Translations under genes and position numbers: made by a program | The notes under the pieces: model-generated | Database searches by the model: none | The model's input: the letters and a program-made list of their open reading frames with translations, nothing else | What the model was told of the DNA's origin: nothing | IMG/VR virus record: IMGVR_UViG_3300010885_080481 | Source of the DNA: a virus | Taxonomy: Duplodnaviria; Caudoviricetes | Length of the DNA: 64,000 bases | Strand: one strand, 5' to 3' | In this document: one piece after another, positions 23,243-51,226 of the stretch | Layout of the letters: each line of letters begins with the position of its first letter | Numbering within the stretch: the stretch's first letter is position 1

Positions 23243-24430
23243 ATGGCAAAAAGAGAGAAGTCAGAAGAAGTTGAGACCGTGACTAAAAAGTCTGAGGTTG
23301 ATAATATGATGAAAGATCTCATTTCATCTATCAACAAGGAATTTGGTCAACGCATTGCGTACAATCTATCAGAGATGGATGCACCTACGGTCGTTAAAAG
23401 GTGGATCGACACAGGGTCGATTCAACTTAACTATGCGATCCGCAACGCAATGGGAGGAGGGTATCCAGAAGGTCGAATCATAGAAATCGCAGGATTACCT
23501 TCATCAGGTAAATCGCACCTTGCATATCACGCGGCTTCAGTGGCCCAACGTATGGGTGGTCTTGTTGTCTATATTGACACAGAAAATGCAACTCCTGTTG
23601 CGAAGTTGGCGGACATGGGAATCGATGTTCGTAAGAGATTTGTTTATTGCGATTCTCACTGTACAGAGGAGGTCTTCTCCATTATTGAATCTACAATCAC
23701 CAAGGCGAAGCAGGTGCTCGATAAGAACATTCCTATTCTTGTCATCTGGGACTCTGTCGCAGCAACTTCTCCTAAGGCCGAGCTCGACGGTGATTATGAT
23801 CAAAACTCGATTGGTCTACAGGCCCGCGCTATTTCTAAGGGAATGCGTAAGATCACAGGCGTCATTGGACAAAACAACGTGACGCTACTCTGCATCAATC
23901 AAATTCGTGATGCTATCGGTGTGATGCATGGTGATCCTACAACGACGCCTGGCGGTCGTGCAATCCCATTCCATTCTTCTGTTAGAATTCGTTTAGGTAG
24001 TGGCAATCAAGTGAAAGACAAGAATGGTAATCCTATTGGAATCCATACCACTGTCACTCTTAAGAAGAATAAGGTTGCTGCCCCTTTTCGCAAATGTGAG
24101 TTTGATATCATCTTTGGCAAGGGTATCGTAGAGGATGAATATCTTTTTGATGAAGTTCGTTCACATTGCAAAGCCAATGGCCCTGTCAAGCGTGATGGTT
24201 TTGAGATCAATGTCAGCGGCGAAGGTGCGTGGAAAGAGCTTTCAGTGGTTAATGCAAAGACAGGCGAAGTTGTGGTAGAGAAGAAGTTCTACAAGTCTGA
24301 GTTTGGGGATATGCTCAAGGACGAGAAATATTCGAGTTATCTCTTGACGGCTATTGACTCTGCCCTTATAACAACTGGTGGCGAACCTTCGGGCGAGGGA
24401 GACGGTGAAGGAGGAATGTCTGATGAGTGA
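23243..24430 (+). CDS. recA: RecA/UvsX recombinase
   Basis: Walker A GLPSSGKS, YIDTE, IWDSVAA, INQIR, TTPGGRAIPF and KNKVAAPF. Confidence 0.92.
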   Translation: MAKREKSEEVETVTKKSEVDNMMKDLISSINKEFGQRIAYNLSEMDAPTVVKRWIDTGSIQLNYAIRNAMGGGYPEGRIIEIAGLPSSGKSHLAYHAASVAQRMGGLVVYIDTENATPVAKLADMGIDVRKRFVYCDSHCTEEVFSIIESTITKAKQVLDKNIPILVIWDSVAATSPKAELDGDYDQNSIGLQARAISKGMRKITGVIGQNNVTLLCINQIRDAIGVMHGDPTTTPGGRAIPFHSSVRIRLGSGNQVKDKNGNPIGIHTTVTLKKNKVAAPFRKCEFDIIFGKGIVEDEYLFDEVRSHCKANGPVKRDGFEINVSGEGAWKELSVVNAKTGEVVVEKKFYKSEFGDMLKDEKYSSYLLTAIDSALITTGGEPSGEGDGEGGMSDE

Positions 24431-24863
24431 TATATTTTGGATTAGATGCGAAGTGGATGACAATGACCTTGTGCCAAAGTATCAAACACAAGGATCTGCG
24501 GGGTGTGACATATATGCTAATGAGTACCTAACGATCAAGCCTGGACGAAGGGCTATGGTGGCCACTGGATTAAAGATCGAACTGCCTCCTGGATTTGAAG
24601 CGCAAGTCAGACCTAGGTCTGGGTTAGCGGCAAAGCATGGTATCACGGTATTAAACACGCCCGGTACTGTTGATGAAGACTACAGAGGAGAGATTAAGGT
24701 CATTTTATTAAACACAGGTGACGAAGAATTTATTGTCAATAAAGGTGATAGGATTGCACAGTTGGTATTTTCTCGAGTTTTTCGTGGGATATTCCAACCA
24801 ACCAATAGCTTGTCTTCAACAACTCGTGGTGGTGGTGGATTCGGTTCAACAGGCAAAACATGA
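24423..24863 (+). CDS. dut: Trimeric dUTPase
   Basis: GSAGCDI, PRSGLA, GTVDEDYRGE, RIAQLV and RGGGGFGSTG. Start moved to the ATG at 24423. Confidence 0.95.
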   Translation: MSDIFWIRCEVDDNDLVPKYQTQGSAGCDIYANEYLTIKPGRRAMVATGLKIELPPGFEAQVRPRSGLAAKHGITVLNTPGTVDEDYRGEIKVILLNTGDEEFIVNKGDRIAQLVFSRVFRGIFQPTNSLSSTTRGGGGFGSTGKT

Positions 24864-29918: not shown

Positions 29919-30182
29919 ATGAAATTTAATCTTAAAGATATAAGGAAAATGGTCAAAGAAGAATATTCTAGGGCTATTCCTGAGTTTATTGTTAAACAAG
30001 CCGTAGAATCTTGTGTCGAAGACTTAAAACGTGTAATGGTCAACCACATTAATTCAAAATCTAACTCTCAGCAGAGCAGACAGAAGATGATAGTAAGAAT
30101 GAACCTGAACCTTGAAGAGTTGGAAAAGGAATTAAAGAATATTGTTGACGAGAAAATTTCAAAGTTTTTATCAGAGATTTAA
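29919..30182 (+). CDS. Hypothetical protein with leader MKFNLKDIRKMVKEE
   Basis: 87 aa with a GAGG SD; member of the shared-leader set. Confidence 0.65.
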   Translation: MKFNLKDIRKMVKEEYSRAIPEFIVKQAVESCVEDLKRVMVNHINSKSNSQQSRQKMIVRMNLNLEELEKELKNIVDEKISKFLSEI

Positions 30183-30183
30183 T

Positions 30184-30843
30184 ATGTCATCCAACGATAA
30201 CAAAGTAGAACTGATCGGATATTATGGGTCAGACGAATCTCATGCACTTTCTGCATGGACTTCAACATCTCGTGAGTTAAACGAAGAAAAGAAAAATAGA
30301 ATACCTCAACTTCTTAAGATGCTTGCCGAGAACGAACATCATTCTGTCTTTGAGAAATCAAGTTTACATTTTCTAGTCACGTCCGACGTAGCATCTCACG
30401 TCCATCTTCTCAAACATCGCATTGGCGTTTCTATAAATGCCGAATCAGCCAGATATAAAGAATTGAAAGATGACAAGTATCACGTTCCGGTTGATTGGGA
30501 TGGTGAAGAAGTGGCTGCTTACACCGAACATATGGAGTCTTCTCTACAAAAATACCATGAAACTCTTGAAAGGCTAGTGAAAAAAGGCATGCCCAGAAAG
30601 CGTGCCAAAGAGTCTGCTAGGTTGTACCTTCCTTATGGAAATCAAATTACTGCAGATGTGATGTTCAACTTCAGAAGCTTTTATCACTTTCTTTATCTTC
30701 GATATTCTGAGCATGCTCAATTAGAGATAAGAAACATAGCTAGACAGATGTTAGAGCTAGTTGTAGAAACTAAAGCATTCCCAGCAACTCTTGAGGCGTT
30801 TGGTCTCACAGTCAATGGCGAGATTAGAGGACCATTTACATGA
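30184..30843 (+). CDS. thyX: Flavin-dependent thymidylate synthase
   Basis: HHSVFE, KHRIGVSINAESARY (ThyX motif), ESARLYLP, NFRS, LR...HAQLEIR. Confidence 0.92.
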   Translation: MSSNDNKVELIGYYGSDESHALSAWTSTSRELNEEKKNRIPQLLKMLAENEHHSVFEKSSLHFLVTSDVASHVHLLKHRIGVSINAESARYKELKDDKYHVPVDWDGEEVAAYTEHMESSLQKYHETLERLVKKGMPRKRAKESARLYLPYGNQITADVMFNFRSFYHFLYLRYSEHAQLEIRNIARQMLELVVETKAFPATLEAFGLTVNGEIRGPFT

Positions 30844-31382
30844 GTAAAAATGCTAATTTACCATTTCATTTTTACGTAAATGTAAATAATGAGTTCTTAG
30901 GTCCACAAATGCCTCGAGGGTCGACTAAGGGTATATGGCACGCTGTTTATAGCAAAGAGTATCAAACTTTATTGTGCCACGTTTTCCTCGAATCGGGAGC
31001 TCACTGGAGTGGTCTTCCTCTCCATGCAATGTCGACTAAAGAAGATTGGTCATTGACAGGGGAACAATTGATGCCATGGACTTCCATGGGAGATCACATA
31101 GAAACATTTTATGCAAAGTATATGGAAGGACTTGAATGTGAAGTTTTCAATCCATTTACGATGAACGGAAGACACACAGGATTAATTGTAGATTGGGAAG
31201 ACGGATACTCTAGATATCCGTCTGAACATAAGCCTCTAAATTTGGTAGAATTGCGAAATGGGCAGTTTGCTTTGCTTCCAAATAATTTTTTGTTGTTTAA
31301 AGACAAACACTTTACTGAAAGTTTAGCAAAAGAAAATTTAAAATTTTATCGCCGTGGTGAAACAACATATTGGGAAAAGTGA
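30840..31382 (+). CDS. Hypothetical protein
   Basis: 180 aa, ATGA-coupled to thyX; no function assigned. Confidence 0.65.
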   Translation: MSKNANLPFHFYVNVNNEFLGPQMPRGSTKGIWHAVYSKEYQTLLCHVFLESGAHWSGLPLHAMSTKEDWSLTGEQLMPWTSMGDHIETFYAKYMEGLECEVFNPFTMNGRHTGLIVDWEDGYSRYPSEHKPLNLVELRNGQFALLPNNFLLFKDKHFTESLAKENLKFYRRGETTYWEK

Positions 31383-31963
31383 TGTCTAAAGTAATAGTGA
31401 TTGAAGGTCCTGATCGAGTTGGTAAAGCAACTCAAACAAATTTTCTTTCTAATTTTCTTTCCTGGAGAGGATATAACGTTTTGACAATCGAAGTTCCTAT
31501 TCGATCAAATTTCGTTTATCATATCATCTATTGGATGCTCCGGAACGGACTGGCAAAAAAACTTCCAAAATGTTTTCAGTGGTTACAATACTTCAATAGA
31601 CAACTATTCCAGTGGTTCACATTAAGAAGATTGGAAAAGAAGTATGATTATATCATTATGGATAGATGGAGTCTATCGACAGTGGTATACGGCCAAGCAA
31701 CGGGAGTGCCTTCATCATTCACTGAAAAATTGTATGCTAGATTGAGAAAACCAGAATTTACTTTTTTACTCTTGGGACCAGCTCACAAACATTCTGCCGA
31801 AGATGTATATGAATCCGACACGGCACTACAAGAAAATGTCAGAAGAATTTATTTAGAGTGGTCAAAAGAACATCTTCAAATGTGCAAGGTAATTGATTGT
31901 ACTCAGCCTAGAGAAGTTATTGCAGAAGAAATTAGAACCAAATTAAATGAATTAAATCTTTGA
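31382..31963 (+). CDS. tmk: Thymidylate kinase-like dNMP kinase 1
   Basis: VIVIEGPDRVGKATQ, IIMDRWSLSTVVY and KPE. Confidence 0.82.
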   Translation: MSKVIVIEGPDRVGKATQTNFLSNFLSWRGYNVLTIEVPIRSNFVYHIIYWMLRNGLAKKLPKCFQWLQYFNRQLFQWFTLRRLEKKYDYIIMDRWSLSTVVYGQATGVPSSFTEKLYARLRKPEFTFLLLGPAHKHSAEDVYESDTALQENVRRIYLEWSKEHLQMCKVIDCTQPREVIAEEIRTKLNELNL

Positions 31964-32269: not shown

Positions 32270-32352
32270 CGTAGGATTTTGGATCTCTATAGCCATTGCA
32301 GTTGTTGTGATGGCTTTTAAATTTTTATCTGTTGATTCTGACGGAGAAGGAA

Positions 32353-32721
32353 ATGATTGATAGATTTTCTGAAATGTGGCAACAACAACGGAAATTCATG
32401 GATCTTTTGAAAGAAAAAAGAGAATTTCCAAGTTACCCAGTCGACACGAGCACAAAATCTGGACAAAAGATCTTAAAAAGTATTACTCACGAATGTATGC
32501 ACGAGTTGTTTGAGGCAAACTTACTTCTAAAAAACTCTAAAGATCATCGAATTGCTGATTTAAAAGAGTTTGATAGAGAAAGCTACGTAGAAGAGCTTTG
32601 CGATGCTCTTCACTACTTTTTTGAGATAGCAATCCTCAGTGGAATTTCTCCTGACGAATTTTTTGATGCTTACATCAAAAAAGGAAAAATCAATGTAGAA
32701 AGAGTAGAAAAAGGATACTGA
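32353..32721 (+). CDS. All-alpha NTP pyrophosphatase (dimeric dUTPase / dCTPase-like)
   Basis: ECMHELFEA and EELCDALHY acidic motifs, plus C-terminal KK..IN.ER..KGY. Confidence 0.75.
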   Translation: MIDRFSEMWQQQRKFMDLLKEKREFPSYPVDTSTKSGQKILKSITHECMHELFEANLLLKNSKDHRIADLKEFDRESYVEELCDALHYFFEIAILSGISPDEFFDAYIKKGKINVERVEKGY

Positions 32722-40267: not shown

Positions 40268-40320
40268 GTGTTTAAATATGCGGTTGCATGAGATCATAAT
40301 TTGGAAAAGAAAATTTGCGG

Positions 40321-40349
40321 TGCAAATTAAAACTTCCATCGAATATAAT
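40321..40349 (+). promoter_or_regulatory. Sigma70-like promoter of dnaE
   Basis: TGCAAA, 17 nt, TATAAT. Confidence 0.55.
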
Positions 40350-40362
40350 GGGTGATAGACAA

Positions 40363-43300
40363 ATGAGTTCAAACTTACCTACAAGATTCGTTGGCCTTCA
40401 TGCGCACTCGACGTTTTCGCAATACGACGGCCTTGACTATCCTCAAGAACATATTGATTATGTTCTAGAGAATGGTATGGATGCGTGGTCATTGACGGAT
40501 CACGGTAACATGAATGGCTTCTGTCATGCGTTTCTTCACACTGAGAAGATGAAAAAGTCAGGAAAGAATTTTAAGTTCATTCCTGGCTGCGAGATGTACG
40601 TCCATCCTGATCTTGGACAGTGGAAAAAAGATCTTGAAGCTTCCAAAGCGAAACCTGCCAAGGACGAGTCGATCATCACTCCCATCACCGCAGTTGTTGA
40701 CGGTGATGATGAAACGACCGATGTAGGTACTGATGAAGCTGCTCTAACGGTTGAGAATGAGGATGAGACGAAGTCAGGTAAGTACAATGACCCTGTGAAG
40801 AGACGACATCATCTCGTCGTCTTGCCAAAAACGTCAACTGGTCTTCAACGGCTGTTTCATTTGGTGTCTAGAGGCTATCTAGAGGGATTTTATCGTTTTC
40901 CCCGCATTGACTATTCGATGTTGAAAGAGGCGGCAAAGGGAGATCATCTCATGATCAGTACCGCTTGTCTCGGCGGGCCGTTGGCATTTGATGCCTTCGA
41001 ACAGCTACAAAAAGTCCCGTTTGAAGAACTGAAGCACCAACTTCTCAACGACAAGTCGTTGCTCGATCGAATCATTGCGACAATGAGCAACACCTACGAT
41101 AAGCTCGTTGATGCAGTCGGTAGAAATAACGTGTGCCTTGAGCTTCAGTTCAATAAACTACCAGCTCAGCATCTTGTCAATCGAGCACTTATCGAATTTG
41201 CTAAGAGAAATTCTCTTCGTGACAGGGTCGTAGTGACATGTGATTCTCATTATTCTCGTCCAGAGAATTGGAAAGAACGGGAGATTTATAAGAAGTTAGG
41301 TTGGCTCAACTATCAAAACTTTGATCCCAGCCTACTTCCAAAATCCAAAGATGATTTGAAGTGTGAGTTGTATCCGAAAAATGCCAAGCAGGTTTGGGAG
41401 TCGTATCTCACAACGACGGAAGGCATGGATTTCTATGACGATGAATTCGTCAAAGATGCGATCGAGCGTACTCACGATATCGTCCACAATGAGCTCGGTG
41501 ACATTCAACCTGACAAGACCATGAAGCTTCCTTCATACGTGATTCCTGAAGGATCCACTGAAGATAAGGCTCTGGTGTCTGCTTGCAAAAACGGGTTGAA
41601 GTGGCGTGGTCTGGATGATAGATCTGATTATATCGAAAGGATCAGGTATGAGCTTGGCATCATCAAGGGGAAGAAGTTCTCTCGATACTTCTTGACGATG
41701 AAAGCAATCATGGACATCGCCCGCGAGCACATGCTGATCGGCCCAGGCCGCGGATCGGCCGCCGGTTCACTTGTGGCCTATGTTCTTGGAATTACGAATT
41801 TGGATCCAATTGAATATGATCTTTCTTTTGAAAGATTCTTGAATCCATCTAGAACAGGTGCCCCTGACATCGATTCTGACATCTCCGACCGTGATCTTCT
41901 CATCGAGCTTCTCAGAAAGAATCTCGGTGACAGGAACGTCATTCCCATCTCAAACTACAATACCTTTAGACTTAAGAGTCTCATCAAGGACATCGCTCGA
42001 TTCTACAGTATTCCGTTCGAGGAAGTCAATGCAGCACTTGCACCCGTCGAGGATGACGTAAAGAAAGAAGTCTTTAAACCAGGTACTGATAAGAATCTTT
42101 TCGTTCTTACATACGAAGATGCAATCAAGTACTCCAAATCTCTACAAGATTTCATTGCGGCGCACCCTGAGGTCGCTGAACCCATCGAGATCCTGTTTAA
42201 GCAGAATCGTTCTCTAGGTCGACATGCAGGTGGAGTCATCGTTTCAGAAGACATTGCTGAGAGAATGCCGTTGATCTTGGCTCGCGGTGAGGCCCAGACG
42301 CCTTGGGTGGAAGGCATGAACTATAAACACCTTGAAGAGTTTGGGTGGATCAAGTTCGACTTGCTGGGTCTCGAAACTCTACGAATCATTGAGCGTTGCA
42401 TCGGTTTGATCCTTGAACGTCGTGAAGGTGTGAAAAACCCAGATTTTAATCAGATCAAGGCTTGGTTTGATAAACACATGGACCCTAAGAACATTGATTT
42501 GAATGATCAAAAGGTCTATGAATATGTGTATCATGAAGGGAGATTTGCAGGCATCTTCCAATTAACGCAGACCGGTGCCCAACGGTTATTCACGAAGGCA
42601 AAACCTCGTAGCATCATCGATATTGCGACCTTGACTTCAATCTATCGTCCTGGTCCCCTCGCCGCAAACGTTGATAAACTCTACATTGATGCCAAGAACA
42701 ATCCTGATAAGATTGATTATCAACATCCATTGATCAAGAAGGTCCTCGAATCAACGTACGGATGCATCATCTTCCAGGAGCAAACGATGCGTCTCTGCTC
42801 CGTGGTTGCAGGCTTTCCTGAGGCCGAGACAGACACCATCCGTCGTAACATCATGAAGCGTAGCGCATCGAAGAAAGACGATGCGGCCGCGGATGCTCGT
42901 AAGGCAAAGGAAGAGTTTATCACCGGAGCAGTTAGGAATGGCGTCAATGAGAAGGTGGCCTCTGAGCTTTATGACAAGATTCTCTTCTTCTCAGGGTATG
43001 GCTTCAACGCATCTCACGCTGTGTCTTATGCCATTGATTCTTATTACTGTGCTTGGCTCTTGACGTATTACGAAGAGGAATGGCTTTGCGCATACCTTGA
43101 GTCCATGTCGGGAAACGATGAGAAACGCGCTAAGGCTTTCTCTGAGGTAAAAGCTCTAGGTTATAAGATCGTTCCCGTTGACGTCAACTACGCTACAAAG
43201 AGTTGGACCATCTTAGAAGGTAAGCGGTTCATGCCAAGCTTCTTGTCTTGTAAGGGCATCGGAGAGGCAGCCATTGATGAAATCATCGAGAATCGACCAT

Positions 43301-43935
43301 ACAAGAACGTTGAGGAAATGTTGTGGAACGATGACGGATCCTGGAAACACTCTAAATTTAACAAACGAGCTTTTGAAGGTCTCATCTCCATTCGAGCGTT
43401 TGATTCTCTTGATTGTGTTGGAGAAGGAAAAACATTTAATAGCTATAAACAGATGCGTCATATCTTGATCGATAGAGGTAATGATATCAAGAAGACCACT
43501 AAGAAAAATCCCACTCTTGGCATGGAGAACTTTAGAAATATCTTGATAGAGACGGACGACATAGATGAGTGGACTCGAGGTGAGCTCGTTGATAACAGTG
43601 TGAAGTACTTGGGATCTTTCAACTCTAACATCCTCGTTTCTCAAGACCTAATCGAAAAGCTTGAGTCAAAAGGAGTCAAATCTATCGACTTCATAGAGCA
43701 AACAGACGTTTATTGGTTTATCATCTCAGACACTAAGGAAAAAAAGACGAAGAACGGAAAACCATACTTGCTTCTCACGGCAATGGGACTTGGAGGACAA
43801 ACTCGTCGAATCTTCTGTTGGGGGTGGGATGGTCACACTGAACTGCCAAAGTATTCCACCTGCATCGCAGAGATCACTGTTGACAACTACGGTAATAAAA
43901 CTTTCATGAGTAAGGTTAAGGTAATCGATGAATAA
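40363..43935 (+). CDS. dnaE: DNA polymerase III alpha subunit (family C) with PHP domain
   Basis: PHP motifs LHAHS, TDHG, GCE and CDSH; GPGRGSAAGS, PDIDSD, RHAGGV, KFDLLGL, YRPGP, GYGFNASHA and a C-terminal OB fold. No intein. Confidence 0.95.
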   Translation: MSSNLPTRFVGLHAHSTFSQYDGLDYPQEHIDYVLENGMDAWSLTDHGNMNGFCHAFLHTEKMKKSGKNFKFIPGCEMYVHPDLGQWKKDLEASKAKPAKDESIITPITAVVDGDDETTDVGTDEAALTVENEDETKSGKYNDPVKRRHHLVVLPKTSTGLQRLFHLVSRGYLEGFYRFPRIDYSMLKEAAKGDHLMISTACLGGPLAFDAFEQLQKVPFEELKHQLLNDKSLLDRIIATMSNTYDKLVDAVGRNNVCLELQFNKLPAQHLVNRALIEFAKRNSLRDRVVVTCDSHYSRPENWKEREIYKKLGWLNYQNFDPSLLPKSKDDLKCELYPKNAKQVWESYLTTTEGMDFYDDEFVKDAIERTHDIVHNELGDIQPDKTMKLPSYVIPEGSTEDKALVSACKNGLKWRGLDDRSDYIERIRYELGIIKGKKFSRYFLTMKAIMDIAREHMLIGPGRGSAAGSLVAYVLGITNLDPIEYDLSFERFLNPSRTGAPDIDSDISDRDLLIELLRKNLGDRNVIPISNYNTFRLKSLIKDIARFYSIPFEEVNAALAPVEDDVKKEVFKPGTDKNLFVLTYEDAIKYSKSLQDFIAAHPEVAEPIEILFKQNRSLGRHAGGVIVSEDIAERMPLILARGEAQTPWVEGMNYKHLEEFGWIKFDLLGLETLRIIERCIGLILERREGVKNPDFNQIKAWFDKHMDPKNIDLNDQKVYEYVYHEGRFAGIFQLTQTGAQRLFTKAKPRSIIDIATLTSIYRPGPLAANVDKLYIDAKNNPDKIDYQHPLIKKVLESTYGCIIFQEQTMRLCSVVAGFPEAETDTIRRNIMKRSASKKDDAAADARKAKEEFITGAVRNGVNEKVASELYDKILFFSGYGFNASHAVSYAIDSYYCAWLLTYYEEEWLCAYLESMSGNDEKRAKAFSEVKALGYKIVPVDVNYATKSWTILEGKRFMPSFLSCKGIGEAAIDEIIENRPYKNVEEMLWNDDGSWKHSKFNKRAFEGLISIRAFDSLDCVGEGKTFNSYKQMRHILIDRGNDIKKTTKKNPTLGMENFRNILIETDDIDEWTRGELVDNSVKYLGSFNSNILVSQDLIEKLESKGVKSIDFIEQTDVYWFIISDTKEKKTKNGKPYLLLTAMGLGGQTRRIFCWGWDGHTELPKYSTCIAEITVDNYGNKTFMSKVKVIDE

Positions 43936-44461
43936 CATGCATACTGTCGTAATCTTCGAAGGATGTGATAAGGTCGGCAAGACTGAGATGGCTAGAGAGC
44001 TTTCAAGACGGTTAGGCATTCCTTATTTTAAAAATAAATCGGAATGGAGGGCATTTAGCTCAGATCCAGACTACTTCGTGAAAGCTCTTCGTTATGGAGA
44101 TCCTTACTTCTACACATTTCTTCGAGACACAAAAACTTCAACAATTCTAGACAGGTCTTATCCTTCCGAATGGGTATATTCTAGGGTATACGGAAGAAAG
44201 ACTGATCATGATGCATTGTCACACATTGACTTTTTGGCTGCGTCGTTTGGCGTGAAGATCGTCATTCCGTATAGAACCTCATATTCAGGAATGAAGGATG
44301 ATATTCACGACATAGGTGAATATCATCTACAAAAATTGTCTGATATGTATGAAGAATTTGCAAAGTGGACTAAATGTGATGTATTACGTTTTTGTATTGA
44401 TTCTGAAAACCTAGAATGGGAAATGGAGACCATTCGTAAATTCTTGAAAAAGGAGGCATGA
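43928..44461 (+). CDS. Thymidylate kinase-like dNMP kinase 2 (candidate modified-dCMP kinase)
   Basis: VIFEGCDKVGKT, ILDRSYPSEWVY; overlaps the dnaE stop. Confidence 0.72.
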   Translation: MNNMHTVVIFEGCDKVGKTEMARELSRRLGIPYFKNKSEWRAFSSDPDYFVKALRYGDPYFYTFLRDTKTSTILDRSYPSEWVYSRVYGRKTDHDALSHIDFLAASFGVKIVIPYRTSYSGMKDDIHDIGEYHLQKLSDMYEEFAKWTKCDVLRFCIDSENLEWEMETIRKFLKKEA

Positions 44462-45486
44462 TGCGCATCGGAATTAGTTATTGGGGTTTTTGTGAGCCTC
44501 TTGGGACATTAGGAGAGGCAAAAACGCCTGACGGTCATCGGTACGGACGTCCAGTATTCATGGATGCAGCCCATACTGCAGGACATAGAGTCTACTCGTT
44601 GCAATCGCGTCGCGAGGCAGTTCCATATAACAACGTAGAATACGATGAAGGATTCCCGGATATAGATGTTCTATTCGTTGAGTGGAGATGGCCTACTTAC
44701 AAAAATTCTGGAGATAAAAAAGTAGAACCAGATCTAGACAGACAAAATGCACTTCTAAATCACTACCACGGCAAGATTCCCGTGGTTATATGGGATTGTG
44801 ATTATAAGGTTACCCCTGAAGATGAAGAAAAGTGGCCGTTGGCTATCATTGCAGATCCTGCGTTTGATCCTAGAAACCTGACTAGAAAACGAGAACGTCT
44901 CATGTTTTGGTCGGATTGGAAATCTATTTTCAATCCTGCTGAAACGTCTTTTGAATACGGATACGTCGGAAACAACTATGAGCGTCCCGAAGCTTTCAAA
45001 AGATTCTACTCTTCCCCTGCATCAGAACTAAGAAATATCGGCATTCAAACTTCCATTTATGGAAATTGGTTAGAAAAATCTCCTGAACGTGAGAGTCCTT
45101 CTATTTTGATTGCGACGTGTCCGAATGTGGCATTTGGAACTCGATTGAACTTTTTTGAATCGATGAAACGATTGAATTCATTCATATGTACGACCCATAT
45201 AACAAAACCAGAATATGCCCGCCGCGGTTTTGTTTCTCCCAGGTATCTAGAAAACGTCGCGGTCGGAACACCTTCATTGGTACCATCGGAATTTTTGATG
45301 TCAAATTTGTTAGGACAAGATTGGATAGTAACAACGTCCAAACATGTCGTTGAACTGGTATCTCACATCAGTAATTTATCTTATCAAGATAGAGTTTCTC
45401 TGGTAGAAGAGCAAAGAAAAAATTTGCAAAATAAAAATGTATTTTCCGTTAACAACGTAATAAGTTTTCTTGAAAGTCTTGTATGA
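44458..45486 (+). CDS. GT-B glycosyltransferase resembling T4 DNA beta-glucosyltransferase
   Basis: By-eye alignment to T4 BGT C-domain as recalled: YGYVGNNYER, IYGNW, HITKPEYARRGFVSPRYLE..V..SLV..EF and R..LVEEQ. Confidence 0.65.
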   Translation: MMRIGISYWGFCEPLGTLGEAKTPDGHRYGRPVFMDAAHTAGHRVYSLQSRREAVPYNNVEYDEGFPDIDVLFVEWRWPTYKNSGDKKVEPDLDRQNALLNHYHGKIPVVIWDCDYKVTPEDEEKWPLAIIADPAFDPRNLTRKRERLMFWSDWKSIFNPAETSFEYGYVGNNYERPEAFKRFYSSPASELRNIGIQTSIYGNWLEKSPERESPSILIATCPNVAFGTRLNFFESMKRLNSFICTTHITKPEYARRGFVSPRYLENVAVGTPSLVPSEFLMSNLLGQDWIVTTSKHVVELVSHISNLSYQDRVSLVEEQRKNLQNKNVFSVNNVISFLESLV

Positions 45487-45494
45487 GGAATAAA

Positions 45495-46484
45495 ATGAAA
45501 GTATTGATCACTGGTGTTGCAGGTCTTTTAGGTGCGAATTTTTCTCGTCATCTTTTGTCCAAAGGACATGACGTCGTTGGCATCGATGATTTGAGTGGAG
45601 GATACGCAGATTCCGTACCAGAGGCTGTAAAGTTTTATCAAGTTGATCTTGCTGAAAGGTTGCAAGTCGAAGAAGTTTTTAAGACCGAAAAACCTGATTT
45701 CGTGTTTCACTTCGCTGCCTATGCTGCTGAAGGCCTCAGTCCGTTCATTAGGAATTACAACTACACGAACAACGTATTGGCCTCGGCAAACGTCATCAAC
45801 GCCTGCGTCAATCATGACGTGAAAAAAGTCATCTTCACTTCTTCAATGGCGGTCTACGGTGAGGGTCGTCCTCCTTTTAGTGAAGACCAGCTTCCGACTC
45901 CTGAAGATCCTTACGGAATCGCCAAGTATGCAGTTGAGATGGACCTGAAGTTAGCTCACAGTATGTTCGGTCTACGTTACAGTATCGTTCGCCCTCACAA
46001 TGTGGTCGGCATCTATCAAAATATTTGGGACAGGTATCGAAACGTTATTGGAATTTGGATTCGTAAAGCTCTCATTGGTGAGCCTCTTACGATTTTCGGT
46101 GATGGGTCGCAAAAAAGGGCTTTTTCTGATATCAAGTTCTATATGGACCCATTCGAAAAATTGATGTCTTCTTTTGACGGAGAAACATTCAATATTGGAG
46201 CAGATAAAGATTTTACGATCAACGAAGCCTGCGATTTGGTTATCGATGTTGCAGCTGAACTTGGTATCAAAGCGACCAAGGTTCATCTAGAAAAACGTAA
46301 TGAGGTTCACACCGCCTATTGCGACCACGCAAAAGCTCATAAGCTTTTAGATTTTAAAGATGAAACGAATCTTCGTGATACAATCAAGCAGATGTTTGTC
46401 TGGGCTCAGCAGCAACCAAATAGACAAATTAAAAATATGGATTATGAGATTGAAAAGAACATGTATTCTTTTTGGAAGAAATGA
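45495..46484 (+). CDS. NAD-dependent NDP-sugar epimerase/dehydratase 1 (extended SDR)
   Basis: GVAGLLG, FTSS and YGIAK. Start at 45495 has a GAGG SD. Confidence 0.9.
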   Translation: MKVLITGVAGLLGANFSRHLLSKGHDVVGIDDLSGGYADSVPEAVKFYQVDLAERLQVEEVFKTEKPDFVFHFAAYAAEGLSPFIRNYNYTNNVLASANVINACVNHDVKKVIFTSSMAVYGEGRPPFSEDQLPTPEDPYGIAKYAVEMDLKLAHSMFGLRYSIVRPHNVVGIYQNIWDRYRNVIGIWIRKALIGEPLTIFGDGSQKRAFSDIKFYMDPFEKLMSSFDGETFNIGADKDFTINEACDLVIDVAAELGIKATKVHLEKRNEVHTAYCDHAKAHKLLDFKDETNLRDTIKQMFVWAQQQPNRQIKNMDYEIEKNMYSFWKK

Positions 46485-47269
46485 CTATGACTTTTCCTGA
46501 AAAATTAGCTGATAGAGAAAAATACATTTTTGATCAAGTCTTAGCTGGCAATTTTGATGCTGAATGGTTTCCTCTTGAATTTTCTTCTGGTGGAAGAACC
46601 ATCAAGTTCAACGTGATGAACGATGCATTGAAAATCGATGGTGTGAGAGTCAATGTATCTGCAGAGCTTCAACAAAAATTAGCCGATGTATTTAACGCGT
46701 CTTTGTTGACAACACACATTGCTGATTTGATGTTCATCAATGCCACACATCGAGTAGAACCATGTCCCATGTTGATATCTTCGACAGTCGATTCTATGAT
46801 TAAACATAGTCGAATGGTCGATGGAAAAATGGGGATGAAGGTGACGGGGCTAGTGGCTTCTCCTGGAAAGCATTGGATTTTAGATAAGAAATTAGATGCA
46901 AATCCTAGGAAAGCTTGCAATTATGGTTGGCACTTTGTCGGTGCGAACTATAAAGGTATAAAAGGCTATCCAACAGGATCTAAACAAAATAAGTTGAATG
47001 GAATGAATATCTCAGTAATTCAGCCAAATGCAACTGCTCACGATATGAAACATTCTGACTATTCTCAGATTTGCCAGCTAGTTTCTCAAGCTTGTTGGAT
47101 TGATGGTGTTATACACCGTTTATCTGATGTTCTGCAAGATCCAATGAAATGCGATCTTGCTACCGCAAATGGTCCTTTAAGCTTCGTTAGGCAACCGGGA
47201 ACGTCTCAACTTATTGGAACTTCAGTTATGTTTCCTGTAAAAATTACTTCGCAAGGAGGAATCACATGA
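46481..47269 (+). CDS. Hypothetical protein with YGWH and HxxxHxDYSQ motifs
   Basis: ATGA-coupled to the epimerase; function unassigned. Confidence 0.65.
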   Translation: MTMTFPEKLADREKYIFDQVLAGNFDAEWFPLEFSSGGRTIKFNVMNDALKIDGVRVNVSAELQQKLADVFNASLLTTHIADLMFINATHRVEPCPMLISSTVDSMIKHSRMVDGKMGMKVTGLVASPGKHWILDKKLDANPRKACNYGWHFVGANYKGIKGYPTGSKQNKLNGMNISVIQPNATAHDMKHSDYSQICQLVSQACWIDGVIHRLSDVLQDPMKCDLATANGPLSFVRQPGTSQLIGTSVMFPVKITSQGGIT

Positions 47270-47454
47270 CGTATGAATATGAATGTAAAGCCTGCAATCA
47301 TCAGTTTGAAGCGCAACAATCAATTAAAGATCCGCCATTGACAAATTGCCCTCGTTGCAAGACTGACTTTTTACGAAGGCTTATAAGCAAGTCAACATTC
47401 GTTTTGAAGGGTTCTGGTTGGGCTGCTGATAACTACTCTTCAAAATCTTCTTAG
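47266..47454 (+). CDS. FmdB-family zinc ribbon protein
   Basis: YEYECKACNHQFE..QSIKDPPLT.CPRC...LRRLIS...F.LKGSGW...NY. Confidence 0.88.
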   Translation: MTYEYECKACNHQFEAQQSIKDPPLTNCPRCKTDFLRRLISKSTFVLKGSGWAADNYSSKSS

Positions 47455-48179
47455 TAAGTAGGCAGTGAGTGTTGTCTCAATGGACAATCACTTTTGTTGC
47501 GAGAAGATCTAGAAGCAGGATGACCAGGTTTTAACAGGTTGTGTAAGTCTTCTCCTTCTTTACTTGCAAAGACTGATTTGACTTCGCCTGTTTCACTATT
47601 AAAAATGATAGTATAACCGCCTCTAGTCATATCTAGGGGTTTTTTTAACGTGTTCATGTAGTCGAACTTACCCGCTTTTGACATTTCTTTATCAAACCAA
47701 GCTTCAAGCACGAAGTTAGAGACAGAAACCGTCACACCGTTAACATCAATTTCGTAGGAATCTCCCTGGACAGGGTCACAAAGCTCTAGGGCCACGAAGG
47801 TATGATCCCCTCTGTTGGACCACAAGTTAATGTAAGGATTGTAGAAAGTCTCTAATATTTCATGCGATAGGACAGTAGAAACAGCATGCGTTCCTTTTAA
47901 TACCGTTCCACCGTGTTTTAGTAGCGGGTCCGTAAAAACTCTACACCAAACTCTTCCGTCAGGATCTTGCGTATGGTATCCAAGAGCACCAGCAACATCT
48001 GGAGAGTCAATAAGAACCACGGGGAATCCATCATTACCACCTACCTTTATCTCCCACGGCACCCTTTCCAGGAGCGGGGCAGCATGTTGATTCATTTGTA
48101 TCTTGCAGGCTTCAACCATTAAGTTTAAGTCTGCTTCTGAAACGTTAGTCGACTTATTGATGACATTAAACGTTCTCAT
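47451..48179 (-). CDS. Zincin-like metallopeptidase (HExxE)
   Basis: ALGYH, VLSHEILE, ELCDPV and VSNFV...WF. Lies opposite to the cluster, with ATATTTA upstream. Confidence 0.6.
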   Translation of the reverse strand: MRTFNVINKSTNVSEADLNLMVEACKIQMNQHAAPLLERVPWEIKVGGNDGFPVVLIDSPDVAGALGYHTQDPDGRVWCRVFTDPLLKHGGTVLKGTHAVSTVLSHEILETFYNPYINLWSNRGDHTFVALELCDPVQGDSYEIDVNGVTVSVSNFVLEAWFDKEMSKAGKFDYMNTLKKPLDMTRGGYTIIFNSETGEVKSVFASKEGEDLHNLLKPGHPASRSSRNKSDCPLRQHSLPTY

Positions 48180-48230: not shown

Positions 48231-49199
48231 ATGAGAATTTTAGTAACTGGGGGAGCAGGCTTCATCGGCAGCAATTTAGCTCGTAAATGTGTTGAAGAAG
48301 AACATTACGTGGATGTTGTAGACAATTTGTTGAATGGTCACATCTCTTTTGTTCCTCATCAACTGAGAACAAATAATCTGTATATTTGTAATTTTGATTC
48401 TGCTCACATTTTGAATAAAATTAGAAATAAAGAATACGATGTTGTTGTTCATCTGGCTGCTATTCCTAGAGTGAGTTATTCTGTTGAACACCCATTAGAG
48501 ACTAATGAAACCAATGTGTCAGCAACGCTTAGATTGATAGACGCTTGCAAAGGCAATATAAAACGTTTCGTTTTTGCTTCTTCATCTTCTGTGTACGGAG
48601 GAGCTGAAAATTTGCCAACCAAAGAAAAAGAACTGAAAAATCCTAAATCTCCCTATGCATTTCAAAAATCGATTATAGAAGACTATTTGAAGATCTACTA
48701 CGACAATTTTGGATTAGACTCAGCAAGTCTACGTTTCTTTAACGTTTTTGGTCCTAATCAGTTAGGCAACTCTCCTTATTCCACTGCGGTTTCTGCATGG
48801 GTAAATGCGATTTTGAGAGGGAAATCCATGCGTTCCGATGGGGATGGGTCTCAATCAAGAGACATGTGTTACGTAGACAACGTCGTAGACGTGTGCTTAC
48901 GCGCAGCAATGTCTGATAAGATTATTGCGGCTGAAACGCTAAACGTAGCATGTGGTGATAGAACGACGAATAAAGAAATTTTGCAATATTTGTTGAAAAA
49001 ATTCCCAGATTCCAAATACCATGATGCACCATGGCGTCCAGGAGATGTCATGCACACACAAGCAGACGTCAGTAGAACAAAAGAAGTATTAGGGTACGTT
49101 CCTCTTGTGCATTTTTGGGAAGGATTGGAAAAGACCATTCAGTGGTACCAAGATAATTGGGAATTAATTCTATCACTGGATGATCAAGGAAATATATGA
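48231..49199 (+). CDS. NAD-dependent NDP-sugar epimerase 2 (UDP-Glc/GlcNAc 4-epimerase-like SDR)
   Basis: GGAGFIG, HLAA, ASSSSVYG, PKSPYAFQK, LRFFNVFGP, RDMCYV and RPGDV.H. Confidence 0.9.
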   Translation: MRILVTGGAGFIGSNLARKCVEEEHYVDVVDNLLNGHISFVPHQLRTNNLYICNFDSAHILNKIRNKEYDVVVHLAAIPRVSYSVEHPLETNETNVSATLRLIDACKGNIKRFVFASSSSVYGGAENLPTKEKELKNPKSPYAFQKSIIEDYLKIYYDNFGLDSASLRFFNVFGPNQLGNSPYSTAVSAWVNAILRGKSMRSDGDGSQSRDMCYVDNVVDVCLRAAMSDKIIAAETLNVACGDRTTNKEILQYLLKKFPDSKYHDAPWRPGDVMHTQADVSRTKEVLGYVPLVHFWEGLEKTIQWYQDNWELILSLDDQGNI

Positions 49200-50179
49200 A
49201 GAATTTTTCTAGCTTTACTGAAGCCTATCGAAACTTGCTTCTTGATGTCTATGAACATCCTGAGTTTTCTTCTGCTCCCCGTGGTTATAAAATTAGAGAA
49301 AAATTGGGCGTGAGTTTCAGCATTACGAACCCAAGAGATCGTTTGCCCTTTCTCACCGGTCGTGATTTTAGCATCTCTTATCTTATTGCAGAATCGTTGT
49401 GGTATTTGTCAGGCGATGATTCCACTGAATGGATTTCTAACTACTCTTCTTTTTGGAAAAGCATTTCTGATGATGGAGTAACTGCTAACAGCGCCTATGG
49501 AGCTCGTATATTCAAACCTCACCCTAGAGTAGCAGGGGAATTAGACCCCGCTTGGACGCAATGGAGGTACGTCGTTGATGAGCTGATTGCAGACCAAGAC
49601 TCCAGAAGAGCAGTCATACATATCAGATCGCCGCAGGATTCTATCCTGGCAAAGAAGGACGTGCCTTGCACGTTGAGCTTGCAGTTTTTTCTTCGTAACG
49701 ATTTGGTTCATATGGTCGTTTCTATGCGTTCATCTGATCTAATTCTAGGATTAGCGTACGACGTCCCTGCTTTTACTTTGTTCCAAGAATTACTAGCTTC
49801 TGAATTATCTAACAGGCTAAATAGACCAATAGGGTTGGGGACGTATACACATGTCAGTAATTCTCTTCATATATACGAGAGACATTTCAAGATGGTAGAA
49901 GAAATCTTGTCTTCACCTATCAACTCTTCAATAGAAATGCCTGCTTTACCTAACAAGGAAGTACCGATCTCTAATATGATGAGTTTTGAAAAAGCCTGCA
50001 GAAATGCTGGTTCGTACCAAGAGATCGATAGGTTACTATCGAATAACGTTATTGAAGATTATTGGAAGGATTGGTTGCTTATTCTTGCATCTCATAGATC
50101 GTTTAAATTTTCTGCTGAACATCAGAAAAAAATCATGAACCAAGTCAGCTTCGAGGGATATAAGTTTTTTAACAAATAA
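49196..50179 (+). CDS. ThyA-fold enzyme, predicted dCMP hydroxymethylase or other dCMP C5-modifying enzyme
   Basis: AE.LWY, DSRRA, PC (C158), MRSSD and SLHIYERH. GLAYD places Asp189 where dUMP enzymes have Asn (E. coli N177). Confidence 0.75.
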   Translation: MKNFSSFTEAYRNLLLDVYEHPEFSSAPRGYKIREKLGVSFSITNPRDRLPFLTGRDFSISYLIAESLWYLSGDDSTEWISNYSSFWKSISDDGVTANSAYGARIFKPHPRVAGELDPAWTQWRYVVDELIADQDSRRAVIHIRSPQDSILAKKDVPCTLSLQFFLRNDLVHMVVSMRSSDLILGLAYDVPAFTLFQELLASELSNRLNRPIGLGTYTHVSNSLHIYERHFKMVEEILSSPINSSIEMPALPNKEVPISNMMSFEKACRNAGSYQEIDRLLSNNVIEDYWKDWLLILASHRSFKFSAEHQKKIMNQVSFEGYKFFNK

Positions 50180-50187
50180 GGAATTTT

Positions 50188-50754
50188 ATGCTGCTAAATC
50201 CTCAATTTATTTTATATTGCGGTCCTATGTTCAGCTCAAAAACGACTGGGCTTCTATCTTCAATTGATCGTTTTAGATACCAAAACAAAAAGGTCATTGT
50301 TTTTAAACCAAAGCTTGACGATAGGTACGTTGAAGATTTTGTTTGCACTCATAGTGGGTGGAAAGTGGCAGCAACTTGTATCAAAGAAGGAAGCGACATC
50401 TTAGAAAAGTTATCAGAGATGGAAGAAAATCCGCACGTCGTTGCCGTCGACGAAGCTTTTATGATACCTGGAATTGCAAAAGTTCTTATTTGGTTATACA
50501 GAAGCGGATATTCAGTTGTCGTTTCATCTTTGGATTTATCAGCCACTGGTAAACCTTTTGACGAGATTGAAAAAATGTTGCCTTGGACTACGCACGTAGA
50601 AAAGAGAAGTGCAGTGTGTACAGTCTGTAGCAGAGACGCTTATTACACTTACAAGAAGCAAATGGGCGGAGATGAGATTGAAGTTGGTGGGTCTGAACTT
50701 TACGAGCCTAGATGCTTAAAATGTCATCCATTGATCTTTGATCCTTCAAGGTGA
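50188..50754 (+). CDS. tdk: Thymidine kinase
   Basis: GPMFSSKT, D.RY, VDEAF, C.VC, IEVGG.E.YEPRCLKC. Confidence 0.9.
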   Translation: MLLNPQFILYCGPMFSSKTTGLLSSIDRFRYQNKKVIVFKPKLDDRYVEDFVCTHSGWKVAATCIKEGSDILEKLSEMEENPHVVAVDEAFMIPGIAKVLIWLYRSGYSVVVSSLDLSATGKPFDEIEKMLPWTTHVEKRSAVCTVCSRDAYYTYKKQMGGDEIEVGGSELYEPRCLKCHPLIFDPSR

Positions 50755-50758
50755 TTTT

Positions 50759-51226
50759 ATGGATTTTAATAGACATTTGCAAAAGCTTGAAGTTTTTATG
50801 AAAATGTGTAAAGAACTTTCAACGCTTTCGTATGATGAAAAGTATAAGGTGTCTTCTATTATTATCACTTCTGATTATAGAGAAGTTTGTGCAATAGGAT
50901 ACAACGGAAGCTATAAAGGTGGTCCTAATCAAAGAAGTTCTTTAGAACATGGAGGGTCTGGATTTTTACATGCAGAAGAAAATGCCTTGTTCCACCTCTG
51001 CAAACCATACGAACTTAGGAACAATTTGCTAATGTTGTGCACACACAAACCTTGTTCTATGTGTGCGAAAAGAATAGTAAATAGTGGAATACAAAAAATA
51101 GTTTTTGATATTGATTATGTTGATCAAGAGGCGTCTGCTGACCAAATATTCCAAGTCAGCGGTACGAAATGTATAAAGTATCAAGACTTAATTTCTTTTC
51201 CTCAAATCTTGTTTGCGTCTAACTAA
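50759..51226 (+). CDS. dCMP deaminase
   Basis: GYNG, HAEENAL and PCSMCAKRIVNSGI. Confidence 0.85.
   Translation: MDFNRHLQKLEVFMKMCKELSTLSYDEKYKVSSIIITSDYREVCAIGYNGSYKGGPNQRSSLEHGGSGFLHAEENALFHLCKPYELRNNLLMLCTHKPCSMCAKRIVNSGIQKIVFDIDYVDQEASADQIFQVSGTKCIKYQDLISFPQILFASN

Follow-up and report, generated by a model that had tools for sequence, protein, structure and literature searches.

A phage glycosyltransferase family related to T4 beta-glucosyltransferase and linked to a dCMP hydroxymethylase-type gene

A 64,000-nt stretch of viral DNA from IMG/VR record IMGVR_UViG_3300010885_080481 (the window, to which all coordinates refer) encodes at 44458..45486, on the plus strand, a GT-B glycosyltransferase that is related to T4 beta-glucosyltransferase (BGT). 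Judged from sequence comparison and gene context, it is probably a phage enzyme of the BGT lineage that glycosylates 5-hydroxymethylcytosine (hmC) in phage DNA, to which we assign a probability of about 0.8. The open reading frame, which an earlier sequence-only reading had placed at these coordinates, proved to be intact, codes for 342 aa and has 264 homologues in a near search (261 among 50%-cluster representatives), nearly all without a name. The same reading had proposed a DNA-acting GT-B enzyme related to BGT, and this proposal is supported by profile-level homology, a GT-B model and a strict linkage to a dCMP hydroxymethylase-type gene.

The window is a portion of a large phage genome with tail-sheath-like and tube-like genes, recA, ribonucleotide reductase and a DnaE polymerase, and almost all of its genes lie on the plus strand. 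Its close relatives are contigs from uncultured viruses, 200-280 kb in length. The gene run of interest starts with the DnaE-type DNA polymerase (40315..43935, plus strand), whose position is conserved in relatives, and continues with a dNMP kinase, the transferase, epimerase 1, three unrelated genes, epimerase 2, a thymidylate synthase (TS) homologue, and finally thymidine kinase and dCMP deaminase, which end the nucleotide block (50188..51226, plus strand; dCMP deaminase at 50738). The transferase overlaps both the upstream kinase gene and the downstream epimerase 1 gene by 4 bases each. The three genes that break up the block (46472-48179) are confined to the closest clade and encode an unknown protein of 265 aa, a zinc-ribbon-like protein of 62 aa and, on the minus strand, a protein of 242 aa with a metalloprotease-like HE motif. 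In the window dnaE is uninterrupted; in relatives (L003-L010, L040, L070) it is repeatedly split, at differing positions, by ORFs of 300-360 aa that are probably homing endonucleases in introns.

As a single sequence, the transferase matched nothing in the PDB, PHROGs or NCBIfam, and nothing in cultured phages by tblastn. Across 185,579 prokaryote genomes, the family is essentially absent, the one hit being a 44-residue fragment. Its sole Pfam match was PF13524 (E 7e-5), at 23.2 bits against a gathering score of 25. The model of the BGT N-terminal domain, PF09198, gave no match at E<=0.1, which places the protein outside the T4 BGT family (CAZy GT63) as defined by PF09198. Pairwise BLAST against T4 BGT yielded no significant match (best E 4.4), and a profile from the narrow alignment A1 missed BGT, which was found only with the broader alignments A2 and A4. 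When the 150-sequence A2 profile was run with hmmsearch against all PDB sequences, T4 BGT was retrieved at E 8.4e-12 together with no other glycosyltransferase, and a profile built from distant family members retrieved BGT in the PDB at E 2.8e-13. Profile-profile comparison with a 42-sequence BGT family alignment gave a probability of 98.6% over the full length (317 columns), and at the profile level all 42 BGT-family sequences passed E<1e-3. Control comparisons returned 0.7% for the T4 alpha-glucosyltransferase, to which no sequence homology was detected, and 0.1% each for DLP3 gp79 and RL38J1 gp215.

When the domains were compared separately, the C-terminal domain matched its BGT-family counterpart at a probability of 98.9 (E 1.3e-17), whereas the N-terminal domain reached a probability of 0.96 and a score of 16.5, not above the shuffle maximum of 17.6. 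At the profile level, the likeness to BGT exceeds chance, and its signal sits in the C-terminal, UDP-binding domain. The order of BGT motifs that had been noted for the C-terminal half holds up in order and register through degenerate counterparts, but of the six literal motifs only EF recurs. Residues 169-176 align to BGT 186-195, YGN at 201-203 to FGN at 213-215, residues 248-265 to 256-272 and EF at 278-279 to 285-286, and the Arg..Gln helix lies at 312-319. The N-terminal domain, described earlier as unlike that of T4 BGT, is so in sequence but not in fold, where it is the same Rossmann domain.

The predicted structure (pLDDT 96.9, pTM 0.93) is a two-Rossmann GT-B protein. Its matches among solved structures were BshA (Z 22.0), BGT (Z 21.8; rmsd 3.6 Å over 292 residues, 14% identity) and PimA (Z 21.8). 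Foldseek ranked BGT 14th by E-value, with a TM-score among the higher ones, and fold matches were tied across many GT-B enzymes. In the ESM Atlas, the top row was a viral cluster resembling the family itself, followed by CgeB-like bacterial proteins with TM 0.75-0.77. The structure comparison that had been suggested as a check thus ended in a tie, with BGT among the top solved matches and CgeB-like proteins as the best predicted matches from outside the family. Because the predicted-structure neighbours include CgeB-like proteins, fold alone is not decisive for function. Nor does the PF13524 match separate CgeB-like from BGT-like proteins, since this domain is also carried by many true BGT homologues, as well as by some homologues of the transferase. 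BGT, the transferase family and the CgeB-like proteins therefore look like one neighbourhood, within which fold does not settle function.

An aspartate conserved in 149 of 150 sequences, Asp115 (44800..44802, plus strand), stands at the end of strand 4. The full-length profile alignment sets it on Asp100, the catalytic residue of BGT (10.1101/2023.12.21.572611), in low-confidence columns of a domain whose alignment is not significant alone. The close-family consensus at this point is TDLK, that of BGT TDIR. The nearby Asp113 is nearly invariant too and constitutes a second candidate. From these columns together with the topology, and with the reservation that the alignment of this domain is weak and that Asp113 competes for the role, we infer that Asp115 is the putative counterpart of Asp100 and hence the putative catalytic base.

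Arg262...Glu265 (45241..45252, plus strand; Arg in 150/150 and Glu in 149/150 sequences) is predicted to bind the nucleotide diphosphate and ribose. Arg262, Glu265, Tyr253 and Arg176 correspond to BGT Arg269, Glu272, Tyr261 and Arg195, of which we take Arg269 and Arg195 to contact the phosphates and Glu272 to be a ligand of the UDP ribose, not of the transferred sugar. The glutamate that had been read at a sugar-binding position (RYLE) is real, then, and aligns to Glu272, but the sugar-binding role did not stand. Given this assumed role of Glu272, Glu265 is uninformative about the donor sugar and points to a nucleotide-sugar donor. Several positions that are invariant or nearly so in BGT are changed: Glu22 to His27, Asp258 to Lys250 and Asn264 to Gly257/Arg256, while Arg191 is lost in a deletion of two residues, and a loop rich in Trp and Arg takes the place of the 70-74 loop with Asn70. 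The family-invariant pocket residues Glu22, Asn70, Arg191, Asp258 and Asn264 are thus not kept in the transferase. These positions presumably line the glucose site, and their replacement is plausibly compatible with an altered donor; at such distance a new donor is allowed rather than proven.

The acceptor can be approached through the TS homologue (49196..50179, plus strand). Its best PDB match is MilA, a CMP hydroxymethylase (E 1.7e-44), and it has Arg and Ser in place of the MilA Lys and Ala that presumably favour ribonucleotides. Among TS homologues, Asp143 (E. coli ThyA numbering) is diagnostic of a hydroxymethyl product and Asp177 of a cytosine substrate, and Asn169 marks 5-hydroxycytosine synthases (PMC13326640). 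Asp143, Asp169 and Asp177 are all present in the window's enzyme, which is the signature for ordinary 5-hydroxymethyl-dCMP; an altered acceptor, as suggested earlier, is therefore not supported. At the level of sequence signature, a dCMP hydroxymethylase and a dNMP kinase are thus both present, as in T4-type hmC systems. The kinase (43928..44461, plus strand) overlaps the start of the transferase, is a second, divergent dNMP kinase with a match to the thymidylate kinase family phrog_761 (E 6e-12), and is a candidate hm-dCMP kinase. ThyX (30142-30843, plus strand) and a canonical Tmk (31370-31963, plus strand) cover the dTMP supply, and the ThyA-fold gene is therefore free for base modification. 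The window also encodes an all-alpha NTP pyrophosphatase (32332..32721, plus strand), a candidate dCTPase with weak matches to dUTPase_2 (E 7e-6) and PRA-PH (E 0.003), and, as a separate gene, a trimeric dUTPase (24378-24863). Palindrome avoidance is absent from the window (mean O/E 0.99), which is uninformative.

To what extent the transferase and the hydroxymethylase travel together was read from 89 distinct transferase loci, of which 36 had enough flanking sequence; they come mostly from one phage lineage and are not independent events. A hydroxymethylase-type gene was present in all 36 well-flanked loci and the kinase in 35, and Asp/Asp/Asp was found in each of the 62 hydroxymethylase-type copies readable by pattern. 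Among distant homologues (27-33% identity), a TS-fold gene adjoins the transferase in 6/8 cases, compared with ~28% for phage GT-B hits generally; of the other two, one lies on a contig that is too short and one has no TS-fold gene within 4 kb.

Anchoring on dnaE and the epimerases in relatives showed that the position after the kinase occurs in four states: the BGT-related family, a GT-B protein of 425-445 aa, a carbamoyltransferase, or nothing. The 425-445-aa protein has a predicted GT-B fold, no Pfam match and no detectable sequence relation to the BGT-like family, and its gene (L125:3904-5190, L252:14366-15670, L247:12010-13332 and ~16 more loci) is always accompanied by a hydroxymethylase-type gene. 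It is a candidate for a second uncharacterised family of DNA glycosyltransferases. In relatives with this alternative transferase (L128:8933-9730, L130, L133, L138-L144), the hydroxymethylase is often shorter and T4-gp42-like, with 26-33% identity to the MilA-like enzyme of the window, and so has been exchanged as well. The carbamoyltransferase state, found in close relatives (L121:3260-6957, L243, L262, L270), includes an unknown partner of 217 aa and sometimes an ATP-grasp gene. Members of this carbamoyltransferase family have been shown to modify 5hmC and accept hm-dCTP as well as DNA (PMC8670742), and the relatives concerned probably make carbamoyl-hmC, perhaps with further modification. 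Each filled state comes with a hydroxymethylase-type gene. This coupling of slot and hydroxymethylase is the strongest argument that an hmC-tailoring enzyme occupies the position.

Some distant members show more elaborate arrangements. At L117:994-6198 and on the contig of P0207, a carbamoyltransferase, a methyltransferase and a TS homologue occur together, and P0163 is a 599-aa fusion whose C-terminal part weakly resembles a phosphotransferase (APH). These arrangements suggest multi-step decoration.

In the pathway that we propose, the ThyA-fold enzyme would convert dCMP to 5-hydroxymethyl-dCMP, the adjacent kinase would help to raise this to the triphosphate, and DnaE would incorporate the hydroxymethylated nucleotide into DNA. 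The transferase would then move one sugar from a UDP-sugar to the hydroxymethyl group in a single-displacement (inverting) reaction with Asp115 as base, and the sugar on the genome may shield it from restriction and other nucleases.

It is also conceivable that the sugar is added before replication to the free nucleotide (hm-dCMP or hm-dCTP), with DnaE incorporating a bulky nucleotide. The overlap with the kinase gene, the position after dnaE, the use of hm-dCTP by the carbamoyltransferases that can take the same slot (PMC8670742) and an acceptor domain that differs from that of BGT would all fit such an order of events. However, DNA is the substrate of the closest characterised relative, and in phages, those base glycosylations that have been characterised take place after replication (PMC13326640). 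Moreover, the invariant Arg28, Arg31, Arg52, Trp76, Arg77, Trp78 and Lys82 of the N-terminal domain appear suited to binding a duplex, and we consider glycosylation of the free nucleotide quite unlikely.

A CgeB-like or capsule/LPS-type enzyme with the virion or a glycan of the host surface as its target, merely located in a nucleotide block, would account for PF13524 being the only Pfam match, below cut-off as it is, and for the CgeB-like proteins among the Atlas models. This is very unlikely, given that the same domain on true BGT homologues removes its power to discriminate, that the family never occurs without the hydroxymethylase in well-flanked loci and alternates in its slot with an hmC carbamoyltransferase, and that bacterial members were lacking among the prokaryote genomes searched, the short fragment aside. 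Least probable of all is a different acceptor base, either 5-hydroxycytosine, as in RB69 and DLP3, or hydroxymethyluracil: the partner enzyme is MilA-shaped, like the 5-hydroxy-dCMP synthases, and a dCMP deaminase is present, but the partner keeps Asp169, where 5-hydroxycytosine synthases have Asn, and the cytosine-specific Asp177, and profile comparison revealed no homology to the 5-hydroxycytosine transferases DLP3 gp79 and RL38J1 gp215. Glycosylation of hmC in DNA is the reading we retain.

The question of which sugar is transferred leads to the two extended SDR epimerases of the block. Epimerase 1 (45483..46484, plus strand), which overlaps the transferase stop, is probably a GalE-like C4-epimerase and is not dedicated to the transferase. 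Epimerase 2 (48231..49199, plus strand) has 6DNT, WbgU and WbpP as best PDB matches, belongs with the WbpP/WbgU-like UDP-GlcNAc 4-epimerase group (PMC12820599) and is general to the lineage; neither epimerase passes curated cut-offs. Although epimerase-dependent phage DNA transferases are known (10.1101/2023.12.21.572611), reading the donor from these two genes was rejected, as both are kept in relatives that lack both a transferase and a TS homologue in the vicinity. In seven such relatives (L119, L123, L132, L136, L137, L145, L147) both hold the same position, and epimerase 1 is present without transferase or hydroxymethylase in L136, L137 and L147. PF00303 was not found in four transferase-less, incomplete records of this kind, in which the positive control was found. 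Epimerase 2 is also kept in two near-complete genomes without the BGT-related family, L243 (100%) and L256 (96%), where positive controls were likewise found. In an unrelated phage (L178:11811-13001, L182), a gene homologous to epimerase 1 is found two genes away from a true BGT homologue with PF09198.

Other sugar genes vary around the transferase. Nearly the same pocket motifs occur with epimerase 1, with a UDP-xylose synthase and two oxidoreductases, or with epimerase 2 alone, and a UDP-xylose synthase also stands beside the alternative transferase (L128). Since the epimerases persist without the transferase and near-identical pocket motifs pair with different sugar genes, the donor is not readable from the neighbours. 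In one clade, a UDP-galactopyranose mutase is found between hydroxymethylase and transferase, and the pocket motifs are its own. Matching pocket motifs to accessory genes was nevertheless rejected as a donor test, because only this mutase clade has motifs of its own, which is one event. A GLF or RGP mutase occurs close to two distant members, and no such mutase was found in five close, incomplete relatives of the window's member; the mutase-linked members hint at a use of furanoses in parts of the family. Ahead of the kinase, L013:3109-9477, L053, L072, L078 and L108 carry a UDP-xylose-synthase-like gene, an FAD oxidoreductase (DAO family) and a short SDR, in place of which L017/L095 have a Gfo/Idh/MocA oxidoreductase and an SDR. 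These sets are possible routes to unusual sugars.

With pocket residues replaced and subclades linked to mutases, an altered donor is plausible. For the window's enzyme we lean slightly towards a sugar other than glucose, with the C4-epimerase products galactose or GalNAc as leading guesses; glucose itself has somewhat less than an even chance. More tentatively, the family may represent a BGT-derived scaffold with a diversified donor, which here would place a non-glucose sugar (again galactose or GalNAc by preference) on hmC and which, in sister clades that have a UDP-galactopyranose mutase, an RGP mutase or a UDP-xylose synthase next to the transferase, would add furanoses or pentoses. If this were true, it would provide hmC glycosides not yet described from such a route and new enzymes for 5hmC labelling.

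Sugar-coated hmC has long been known as a means of evading restriction, so the strategy is not new, and neither are the gene layout and the placing of sugars other than glucose on hmC. The apparent novelty is a real BGT-derived family that is widespread and unannotated (no Pfam match above cut-off and no PHROG, NCBIfam or cultured member were found), most likely glycosylates hmC in jumbo-phage DNA and extends the BGT lineage into phages that use DnaE. The family also marks a swappable slot for hmC tailoring, which is either empty or filled by a carbamoyltransferase or one of two transferases. Should the donors prove to be non-glucose sugars, the family would add base modifications that bear on how sensitivity to modification-dependent nucleases is predicted, and would offer further enzymes for detecting 5hmC besides T4 BGT, the standard reagent.

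Compared with T4 BGT (PF09198; PDB 1c3j, 1j39), the transferase shares the GT-B fold, a homologous C-terminal nucleotide domain, the aspartate at the end of strand 4, the equivalents of Arg269, Glu272, Tyr261 and Arg195, and the linkage to a dCMP hydroxymethylase. It differs in its low structural identity (14%), the missing PF09198 match, an N-terminal domain that is unrelated at the profile level, and the loss of Glu22, Arg191, Asp258, Asn264 and the 70-74 loop; T4, moreover, has a family-B polymerase, whereas the phage of the window uses DnaE. The CgeB/YkvP-like proteins (PF13524) resemble the family in a weak C-domain match and a close predicted fold, but the family stays below the Pfam cut-off, is viral only and has a nucleotide-metabolism context.

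Pyle et al. (10.1101/2023.12.21.572611) described phage transferases that put varied sugars on 5hmC, with GT-B members resembling BGT and BshA and with many metagenomic GT-B hits near thymidylate synthase homologues. Compared by description only, their tested enzymes act on TET-made 5hmC, whereas here the source is a dCMP hydroxymethylase; their epimerase-dependent enzymes form a subclass apart from the GT-B ones, and here the epimerases are not strictly coupled to the GT-B protein. The RB69/DLP3 (arabinosyl-) and RL38J1 (galactosyl-5-hydroxycytosine) systems (PMC13326640) share the trio of TS homologue, transferase and thymidylate-kinase-like gene and, in some members, a UDP-galactopyranose mutase, but their first transferases have no detectable homology to that of the window, whose partner enzyme lacks the Asp169Asn change.

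Finally, C-domain homologues exist in two cultured phages, Maribacter phage Molly_1 (gp102, probability 96.2) and Lactobacillus phage ATCCB (gp46, probability 93.8). Both belong to separate branches, and their name 'beta-glucosyltransferase' is annotation only. In each, a TS homologue adjoins the transferase, and each has sugar genes of its own: a UDP-sugar dehydrogenase and an epimerase in Molly_1 (L025:2078-6837) and a mutase in ATCCB (L027:4337-7392). Being cultured, the two phages offer easy material for probing non-glucose donors in the BGT lineage.
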